This document shows, one piece after another, positions 20,845 to 22,874 of a stretch of 64,000 bases of DNA (within the stretch, counting starts at the first letter, position 1; each line of letters opens with the position of its first letter). Both the position numbers and the translations under genes were made by a program. Below the pieces are notes generated by a model, which saw only the letters and a list, made by a program, of their open reading frames with translations, was not told where the DNA came from and did no database searches. The stretch is taken from the sequence record PZ379075.1, one strand, 5' to 3'. This DNA comes from a phage.

Positions 20845-22874
20845 ATTTGTGGCATCGTATTAGCTGGCGGTAATCTGTCAAGCACTGATTTAGACGTATT
20901 TAACCAACTCTTTTATGCTGGAGTATTCCGAGGACAACATTCCTCCGGTATCTTTGGTCAGCGTAAAAGTACTAAGGAAGTCTTCACTTATAAAGAAGCT
21001 CTTCCTTCTTTCGCATTCATCCTACAAGATGAGTACAAGAAGCACACCACTGGTGAAACAGCTTACACTGTAGCACCTTCATGGATTGTTGGTCACAGTC
21101 GTCATGCAACGAAAGGTGCAGTTAACGCCAAGAACGCCCATCCTTTCCAACATGGTAACATCACTCTGGTTCATAATGGAACCTTGATGGACCAAGACCT
21201 GTTACCTGACAGTAAAAACTTCGAGGTAGATAGTGAGAACATCTGCCACTCTATTAACACTATTGGTGCAGCAGAGACTATTCAAAAGCTGGATGGTGCT
21301 TTCACCTTAATCTGGCATGATGCTTCTGATAACCGCCTTCATATCATTCGTAACGAAGAGCGTCCTTTCCATCTCGCACGTTGTAACAGAGATTGGTTTG
21401 GCGCTTCTGAAGAAGATATGCTGATGTGGATTCTGAAGCGTTCGAAGTCTCACAAGAACCGTATTGATGAGCATTTTGAGTGTAAAGTTGGTACAGAGTA
21501 TATCTTTGACATGTCTAATAACAGCATGACACTGGTTGAAGAGGTCGCCCACGAGCTTCCGGTTTTTACGGTAGTCAATCGTTGGGGCAATTACTACTCG
21601 AACAATTACAGCCAAAGCAACTATCAAAGTTCCTCAAAAAGCAGTACAAGCAATCCTTACGACACGAAGCCGGGTGTGACAGCGGCAGACGTTCGTCGAA
21701 GAAACGCAGTGGTAAGTCAAAACAAAATCGCAAGCGATCGAAACATTGATATTCGCCGCGATATGACTGTGGAAATCACTCCGCATGAGTTTGTTCCTTA
21801 TGCAACTGCCGGTGCTGTTCCTTCTCGTGGTAAGATGATTGGTTATATCTACGATGAGAAATCTCAAGAGTATATCGAAGGTGATGTTCATAACGTAGAC
21901 ATTAAGGCTTATCAGGATGCCCTGAAAGACCCTAAAATTGTTTACCGTGGGACAGTATCCTGCATCTCCGAAGTCAATGCTATGGTCCGTTTAGTGATCA
22001 CAGCAGGTCGTTTTGTTGACCCATCTCTGGAGAAAAAGGAGCCTGAGTCAACTACTGCTGACTTCGATGATGATATCCCTTTTGATATGAATGATAGTTT
22101 CGTCAACAAGAATGGTGTTACTATCACTCGTAAATTCTGGGAAGCGCACTCTCATGGTGATTGTGGTGGTTGTGATAAGCACATTGATTGGAAGGATGCA
22201 CCTAAAGCAGTCTTCGCATATCAGTGCTATTGGCATCCTGAATGTCTGGAAGGTTTGACTAAACCTAAAGAGGAAGAAGAGGAGGAAACTCCTATTGGTG
22301 TTTGTGAAATCTGCGGTGAAGTTAAAACAGAGAATGAGTTCGATGATGAACTTAGTCGTCTTCGTGGTGAAGATATCTGTAAAGTCTGCGCTGTAGAAGT
22401 AAAGAAGAAAGTGTCTAATGCTACGATCAAAGATGGTTATGTCTGGATTAAAGCAACAGATACAACAAACGCCCGTCGTCCTGAATTCGCTTTACGTGTA
22501 ACTGAAGATATGATCGGTCGTATGACTGTATTACCTTCCTCAGCGAAACAGACAGGCATCACTCTGGAGGATGTTGTTGATGCTTATGTTGAGAAACGTA
22601 GCAACAGTATTTTTGCAATCTCAACTAAGCCAAAAAGGAGGAACCTGCTGAGAAAGCAGGTGTGTTTCCTGAATCACGAACAGCTCTCCGCAAAACTGTC
22701 GTCAGCTTCGACGGAAACCGAAGCACTGACTTCACCAAAGCAATGTGGTCAACCCTCGGATACTGCTCAGAGTGTTTTAAGCAGATTCCGTGGCGCGATG
22801 CTGAAAGTTGTACGCTTGGTTCTATGAATCAAGTTTATTGTAATTCTCCTAAATGTTCATTGAATAGAGGTTAA
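20845..22874 (+). CDS. class-II (Ntn) glutamine amidotransferase domain protein with Cys-rich zinc-ribbon C-terminal modules; frame break at A5 run near 22632
   Basis: N-terminus CGIV...GHSRHATKG...NAHPF...LVHNGTL matches GATase-II core; no ATG (ATT precedes catalytic Cys, SD GGTGGA 7 nt upstream); C-terminus continues in -1 frame after CCAAAAAGG. Confidence 0.6.

Follow-up and report, generated by a model that had tools for sequence, protein, structure and literature searches.

The window analyzed here, i.e., the whole stretch of 64,000 nucleotides available for sequence record PZ379075.1, can be assigned by nucleotide similarity to a phiEco32-like coliphage (Kuravirus, Gordonclarkvirinae). 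When the region 20800-22900 was used as a megablast query, 98 phage records were matched, all of them Escherichia or Shigella phages that belong to the phiEco32 group, and the best matches were 99.5-100% identical. The gene contained in this region is recognizable by homology as the orthologue of phiEco32 gp83 (phi32_83, ABY52884.1), which is annotated as "glutamine amidotransferase" and which in phiEco32 constitutes an unbroken open reading frame of 2031 nt, encoding 676 aa and carrying a run of six A residues (A6). Its neighbors encode a COOH-NH2 ligase type 2 (PF14395), an Amidoligase_2 protein (PF12224), a DUF7195 protein and an ATP-grasp enzyme. A role of the amidoligase and GATase genes of this cluster in cell-wall modification is mentioned as a proposal in a passage of PMC10580990 that cites Iyer et al. 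(2009). The following features were located in and around the 3' part of the gene:

20845-22636, plus strand: authentic part of the amidotransferase reading frame (gp83 residues 1-597), with Pfam GATase_6/GATase_7 and collinear with phi32_83

22093-22260, plus strand: upstream Cys-rich module (...TRKFWEAHSHGDCGGCDKHIDWKDA...CYWHPEC), paralogous to the C-terminal module by BLASTP

22629-22874, plus strand: segment in the -1 frame encoding the true C-terminus, comprising a linker and a Cys-rich module (module approximately 22704-22856); identical to the gp83 C-terminus after addition of one A

22632-22636, plus strand: A5 run with a deficit of one base, the consensus of the family being A6 according to alignments with relatives

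22635-22641, plus strand: Shine-Dalgarno (SD)-like AAGGAGG inside the coding sequence, nucleotide-identical in all three clades compared below

22637-22827, plus strand: out-of-frame tail of 63 codons in the main-frame translation, unrelated to the gp83 family and ending with TGA 22825-22827

22643-22661, plus strand: predicted 7-bp hairpin ACCUGCU-GAGAA-AGCAGGU, folding at -11.6 kcal/mol, with a 5-6 bp equivalent in other clades

With regard to the N-terminal part of the protein, both Pfam models for class-II glutamine amidotransferase domains exceed their curated thresholds, GATase_6 with E = 1.1e-14 and 55 bits (cut-off 27) and GATase_7 with E = 3.6e-6 and 27.4 bits (cut-off 25). Weak PDB sequence matches were obtained to the N-terminal domains of GlmS and PurF, and Pfam recognized nothing in the protein beyond the N-terminal class-II domain. 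The reading frame begins with ATT at 20845, and the next codon, TGT at 20848, encodes the catalytic Cys. Window positions 20831-20850 also contain an SD-like AGGTGGA at a distance of 7 nt upstream and, two codons before the ATT, a TAG stop at 20839-41. The ATT start and the ensuing Cys are also kept and annotated in phiEco32 and Bas88. ATT 20845 is the only start with which the amidotransferase can retain the catalytic N-terminal Cys. Several records, among them ShigP1 and EcM-vB1, have the coding sequence start at ATG 21187, by which the Cys and about 114 residues are lost. The product of this gp83 orthologue is classified by its domain content as a class-II (Ntn, N-terminal Cys) glutamine amidotransferase of 676 aa with C-terminal Cys-rich modules.

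A preliminary description of this DNA had placed a frame break at an A5 run inside the amidotransferase gene, and this is indeed what the record contains. Positions 22630-22641 read CCAAAAAGGAGG, with the A5 run at 22632-22636. Translated from ATT 20845, the main frame reads ...AISTKPK, continues with RRNLL... and stays open for 63 more codons until the TGA at 22825-22827. The -1 frame opens after TAA 22626-22628, reads AKKEEPAEKAGVFPESR...CSECFKQIPWRDAESC...CNSPKCSLNRG* and stops with TAA 22872-22874. Insertion of a single A at the run yields one open reading frame of 676 aa, in line with the statement of the preliminary description that one additional A restores continuity. The alignable C-terminal half of the restored protein matches phiEco32 gp83, its C-terminus is identical, and end-to-end collinearity of the window gene with gp83 (676 aa) is attained only after insertion of the A. 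On account of this identity with the C-terminus of phiEco32 gp83, the segment in the -1 frame is evidently not a chance open reading frame, and the Cys-rich module does continue there, as had been claimed. Compared with phiEco32 gp83, we are thus dealing with the same gene in the same neighborhood, with the same ATT start and, after addition of one A, the same C-terminus, the difference being that phiEco32 has A6 and the window A5, which leaves the window's reading frame broken as recorded.

The C-terminal module had furthermore been described as a duplicate of an upstream one. BLASTP supports it as a real paralogue of the upstream module, with E = 3e-5 and 12/35 identities that follow the pattern SF..T+..W..G.C..C.K.I.W+DA. 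In the parallel originally drawn between the two regions, two separate similarities had been merged into one: the correspondence is actually linker to linker and module to module, and in the upstream region the CGGCDKHIDWKDA module comes first and the acidic linker KPKEEEEEETPIGV second, the reverse of the order drawn. The label "zinc ribbon" derives solely from the spacing of the Cys residues, and a Pfam search on the Cys-rich modules returned nothing significant (zf-A20 at E = 0.26). Since relatives including those of divergent clades are in frame over the junction, the last module is an integral part of one open reading frame across the subfamily.

The state of the run in these relatives was compared at several levels. 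In a four-way alignment the gene contains a single gap, with A5 in the window and EcM-vB1 and A6 in phiEco32 and ShigP1; apart from this gap, ShigP1 is 100% identical to the window over 2.1 kb. When 181 nt around the run were searched against phage records, the extra base was present in 51 of the 53 rows with full coverage among the matches listed. A search with 91 nt gave an ungapped, i.e., A5, match only in EcM-vB1, EcK-vB and EcP-vB (3 of 70 records). Exact matches in IMG/VR numbered none for A5 and three for A6 (3/3 contigs with A6), and metagenome contigs matching the flanks carry A6 in 6/6 cases. Divergent clades, one represented by Bas88, SU7 and ECBP2 and another by Bas89 and KBNP1711, pass the junction in frame without an A run at about 56% amino acid identity in this region; the Bas88 gene lacks an A run altogether and its protein is in frame, and 28 records at about 56% identity align over the junction in a single piece. 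The comparison with related phage genomes that the preliminary description had proposed as a check therefore finds, at the run, nearly all relatives with A6 and a continuous reading frame. A search for homologous proteins with the C-terminal 260 aa gave no match, and a scan of IMG/VR with a six-sequence profile returned the same three clades only.

The three records that share A5 with the window, EcM-vB1, EcK-vB and EcP-vB, have the same host and source descriptor (sewage, Egypt). In EcM-vB1, at least 10 more single bases are missing relative to the window, and the EcM-vB1 paper reports no genome sequencing. In the same indel-ridden record, a gamma-glutamyl cyclotransferase (GGACT) gene at 23930-24347 is present in two pieces. 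Two other assemblies, EC.W14-3 and EC.W2-6 (PP496998.1, ends 69162 of 69164; PP445229.1, position 1), end or begin at the A run, their blastn alignments stopping at query position 97 and resuming at 99; assemblies may repeatedly break at this run, or the assembly pipeline may have produced the common cut point.

Homopolymer lengths were then considered for the entire window, which was aligned with ShigP1 and in which the aligned runs were counted. Wherever the two differ by an isolated single-base indel, the window has one base less in a homopolymer. The run lengths (window/ShigP1) are A6/A7 at 32, A5/A6 at 22636, C5/C6 at 23752, A4/A5 at 31431, G4/G5 at 38400 and C4/C5 at 50283. Sorted by length, the window's run is the shorter one in 1/1 runs of length 7, 2/16 of length 6, 3/110 of length 5 and 1/410 of length 4, while none of the aligned runs is longer in the window (7 shorter, 0 longer). 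phiEco32 agrees with ShigP1 at 22636, 23752, 38400 and 50283. At the intergenic position 31431 it agrees with the window, so that this difference is probably ShigP1's own. Three of the deficits disrupt further conserved genes:

23748-23752, plus strand: C5 run, with six C in phiEco32 and ShigP1, which divides the ATP-grasp gene (phi32_80 orthologue) into two pieces, 23318-23773 and 23800-24510; addition of one C gives 397 aa

38397-38400, plus strand: G4 run (G5 in phiEco32 and ShigP1) by which, according to the alignment, codons 1-19 of the phi32_52 orthologue are shifted out of frame; addition of one G restores the frame

50280-50283, feature on the minus strand: run of four C as read on the plus strand (5 bases in phiEco32, ShigP1 and EcM-vB1) that divides the gp26 orthologue (1473 aa) into 46357-50253 and 50262-50822; addition of one C restores a single open reading frame

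The mended phi32_52 orthologue (window 38345-38709) comprises 121 aa. The gp26 gene (46357-50822, minus strand) belongs to the virion/injection module and is intact in every relative examined. Apart from these single-base differences, an adhesin-like (YadA-like) gene at about 7100-7210 of the window contains an 18-nt tandem repeat (GATGGCATCAATGGTAAA-like), the copy number of which varies among the window, ShigP1 and EcM-vB1.

On the basis of these comparisons, we consider it probable that the A5 run represents a homopolymer-length error of sequencing or assembly in a gp83 orthologue. An A6 run in the linker preceding the last module would have been recorded as A5 in this assembly; the annotated frame would consequently enter 63 nonsense codons and the last approximately 80 codons would be left in the -1 frame, such that recoding would be neither needed nor implied. 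What is observed is that one base is lacking, that few relatives share this deficit, that a single inserted base restores the frame and that other deficits have the same direction. A technical cause rather than a real mutation is most likely: homopolymer undercalling is favored because the deficits go in one direction, depend on run length and break reading frames including that of a large virion/injection gene, and at the amidotransferase itself the relatives have the run at n+1 (A6 vs. A5). The undercall suggested as one of two options in the preliminary description is thus strongly supported. Homopolymer-length errors in phage assemblies have the same appearance, with length-dependent single-base deficits inside runs, all in one direction, and reading frames that are each mended by one base. 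What sets the window apart from this pattern is that its A5 call is common to three other deposited genomes.

This sharing speaks for a real one-base deletion from A6 to A5 in the phage lineage, which would cut the amidotransferase to 597 authentic residues followed by a nonsense tail of 63 residues (a predicted product of 74.3 kDa), the C-terminal module being lost or dispensable. The A5 allele occurs in the three deposited genomes together with C5 in the adjoining ATP-grasp gene; the segment in which the window and the EcM-vB1 group have both alleles in common is locally near-identical and may represent a real haplotype that they share. A6 runs are, moreover, natural indel hot spots, and as the amidotransferase and ATP-grasp genes both reside in one accessory cluster, the two breaks lie in genes of a single accessory pathway that might be dispensable. 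A genuine deletion nevertheless appears unlikely in view of the fact that 7/7 homopolymer differences from ShigP1 have the same direction and are commoner in longer runs, and that one of the deficits breaks the 1473-aa gp26 gene. In addition, the other carriers of A5 are visibly indel-ridden assemblies, and A5 is absent from IMG/VR and from the metagenome contigs searched.

The second option offered in the preliminary description, a -1 frameshift at the near-slippery A AAA AGG, found no support as a designed mechanism. In this scenario, the A5 layout would be expressed by -1 frameshifting at A_AAA_AGG, with tRNA-Lys slipping while the rare AGG waits in the A site and with assistance by the hairpin at 22643-22661, so that the full-length protein would still be made. 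The local sequence does offer some elements of such a site, as the A_AAA tetramer is in phase, tandem rare AGG AGG codons come next and the 7-bp hairpin, which the in-frame relatives have equally, begins 7 nt past the AAA; "savior" frameshifting that mends indels is also brought up as a proposal in a section of PMC5009743. However, the zero-frame codons are CCA AAA AGG, which do not conform to an X_XXZ_ZZN heptamer and provide the A_AAA tetramer only. A tandem slip is impossible at this site because the P-site CCA would need to re-pair on GCC. With a strong pseudoknot, the six tetramers that respond in E. coli give between 0.26% and 5.6%, A_AA.A being the weakest among them, and a tetramer on its own hardly shifts unless a strong stimulator is present (PMC4066793). 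Finally, the two-frame layout is not conserved, the relatives having one continuous open reading frame. We therefore regard expression of the A5 layout by frameshifting as very improbable; a trace rescue is conceivable at best and would be incidental rather than a designed mechanism. Transcriptional slippage or a phase-variable switch is unlikely at a run of five or six bases.

A homopolymer undercall in the window is compatible with a further feature of the intact gene, which we put forward as a tentative possibility: the gene may hold a conserved dnaX-like programmed -1 frameshift cassette, from which a form of 602 aa and 67.7 kDa without the last Cys-rich module would arise beside the form of 676 aa and 76.1 kDa. 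The codons at the junction are as follows:

phiEco32: AAG CCA AAA AAG GAG GAA CCT GCT GAG AAA GCA GGT

Bas88, SU7 and HC-25922: AAT GCC/TCC CCA AAG GAG GTG/GTA CCC GCT GAG AAA GCG GAA/GAG

Bas89 and KBNP1711: ACT ACC CCA AAG GAG GAA CCC/TCC GCT CCA GCA/GTA GCG GAA

In all six representatives (6/6) from three clades, an in-phase heptamer ends on one and the same conserved AAG. This heptamer is A_AAA_AAG in Kuravirus; the Suseptimavirus and Nieuwekanaalvirus groups have C_CCA_AAG. In the clades with C_CCA_AAG, the codon before CCA varies (GCC, TCC, ACC) yet always ends with C. According to Sharma et al., C_CC.A_AA.G, G_GG.A_AA.G and A_AA.A_AA.G are the most efficient motifs in E. coli (PMC4066793), and the heptamers found here are two of these three. 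A hairpin of 5-7 bp begins 5-7 nt past the heptamer in every clade, stimulatory structures generally beginning 5-8 nt downstream (PMC4066793). Its 5-bp core is kept in 6/6 representatives with differing loops, and one U-A to C-G compensatory pair is located at synonymous positions; for the extended stem-loop, folding energies of -9.7 to -14.5 kcal/mol and z-scores between -1.1 and -3.9 were computed. A stop in the -1 frame follows after 5 codons in Kuravirus and the SU7 group or after 11 codons in the KBNP1711 group, the predicted -1 product of phiEco32 ending with ...STKPKKGGTC.

Several points weigh against such a cassette. The site was looked at for being an A run, which introduces an ascertainment bias. 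In-phase V_VVA_AAG heptamers inside annotated phiEco32 genes amount to only three, at 8499 (capsid), 54736 (gp83) and 63707 (C_CCA_AAG, codons 4-5 of phi32_96, a small gene), about four being expected by chance per genome; depletion of in-phase heptamers in phiEco32, which was considered as possible support for the cassette, accordingly gave no signal. The covariation comprises one or two pairs, and 68/500 shuffles score as high. The inner hairpin has just 5-7 bp, only three clades are available for comparison, and the conserved nucleotides double as codons for conserved K-E and P-A residues. Inspection of the intact site for a GGAG-like or other SD-like stimulator upstream of the heptamer revealed none; the conserved AAGGAGG overlaps or follows the heptamer, with its GGAGG downstream. 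Internal initiation of the C-terminal module, for which AAGGAGG, the hairpin and GTG 22662 were evaluated, was discarded, given that the other clades lack the in-frame start and carry ACA or ACC at its position.

Two known systems provide a yardstick. E. coli dnaX (tau/gamma) resembles the intact relatives of the window gene in having an in-phase A_AAA_AAG that is followed within a few bases by a stem-loop, and a -1 stop soon afterwards leading to a C-terminally truncated product, which for the phage gene is a prediction. On the other hand, the phage site differs from dnaX by the lack of an upstream SD-like stimulator and by its shorter hairpin, and the A5 version in the window is devoid of the heptamer. 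The capsid -1 frameshift of phiEco32-like phages (major head protein/Ig-like extension) occurs in the same phage group and employs a heptamer of the same class, G_GGA_AAG at phiEco32 8499; that these phages already use such a motif adds to the case for the cassette. In contrast to the candidate, the shift at the capsid site adds a long -1 open reading frame to the protein; the capsid site lies outside the window and is unrelated to the break in the amidotransferase gene. For phiEco32 and SU10, observation of the frameshifted capsid protein has been reported (PMC7881722). A literature search for a frameshift in the gp83 gene retrieved the capsid frameshift only. The more general proposition that the linker before the last module constitutes a dnaX-like -1 cassette throughout the gp83 family of the Gordonclarkvirinae, with heptamer, GGAGG, hairpin and early -1 stop giving rise to two enzyme isoforms, and that the ribosome-slippery nature of the A run would also be the reason why it was miscalled or mutated here, is in our opinion rather doubtful.

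For the record itself, the frame break is most likely an assembly defect in a known gene. In annotation, the gene should be treated as one amidotransferase of 676 aa starting from ATT 20845, and the broken ATP-grasp, gp26 and phi32_52 genes should be mended or flagged and not be read as instances of recoding or gene loss. The records of EcM-vB1, EcK-vB and EcP-vB, which have the same defects, call for a corresponding warning. The sole potentially new biology resides in the candidate -1 cassette of the intact gene, a lead that is separate from the frame break. If true, these phages would have two programmed frameshifts, the second of them in a metabolic enzyme, where such cases are rare.
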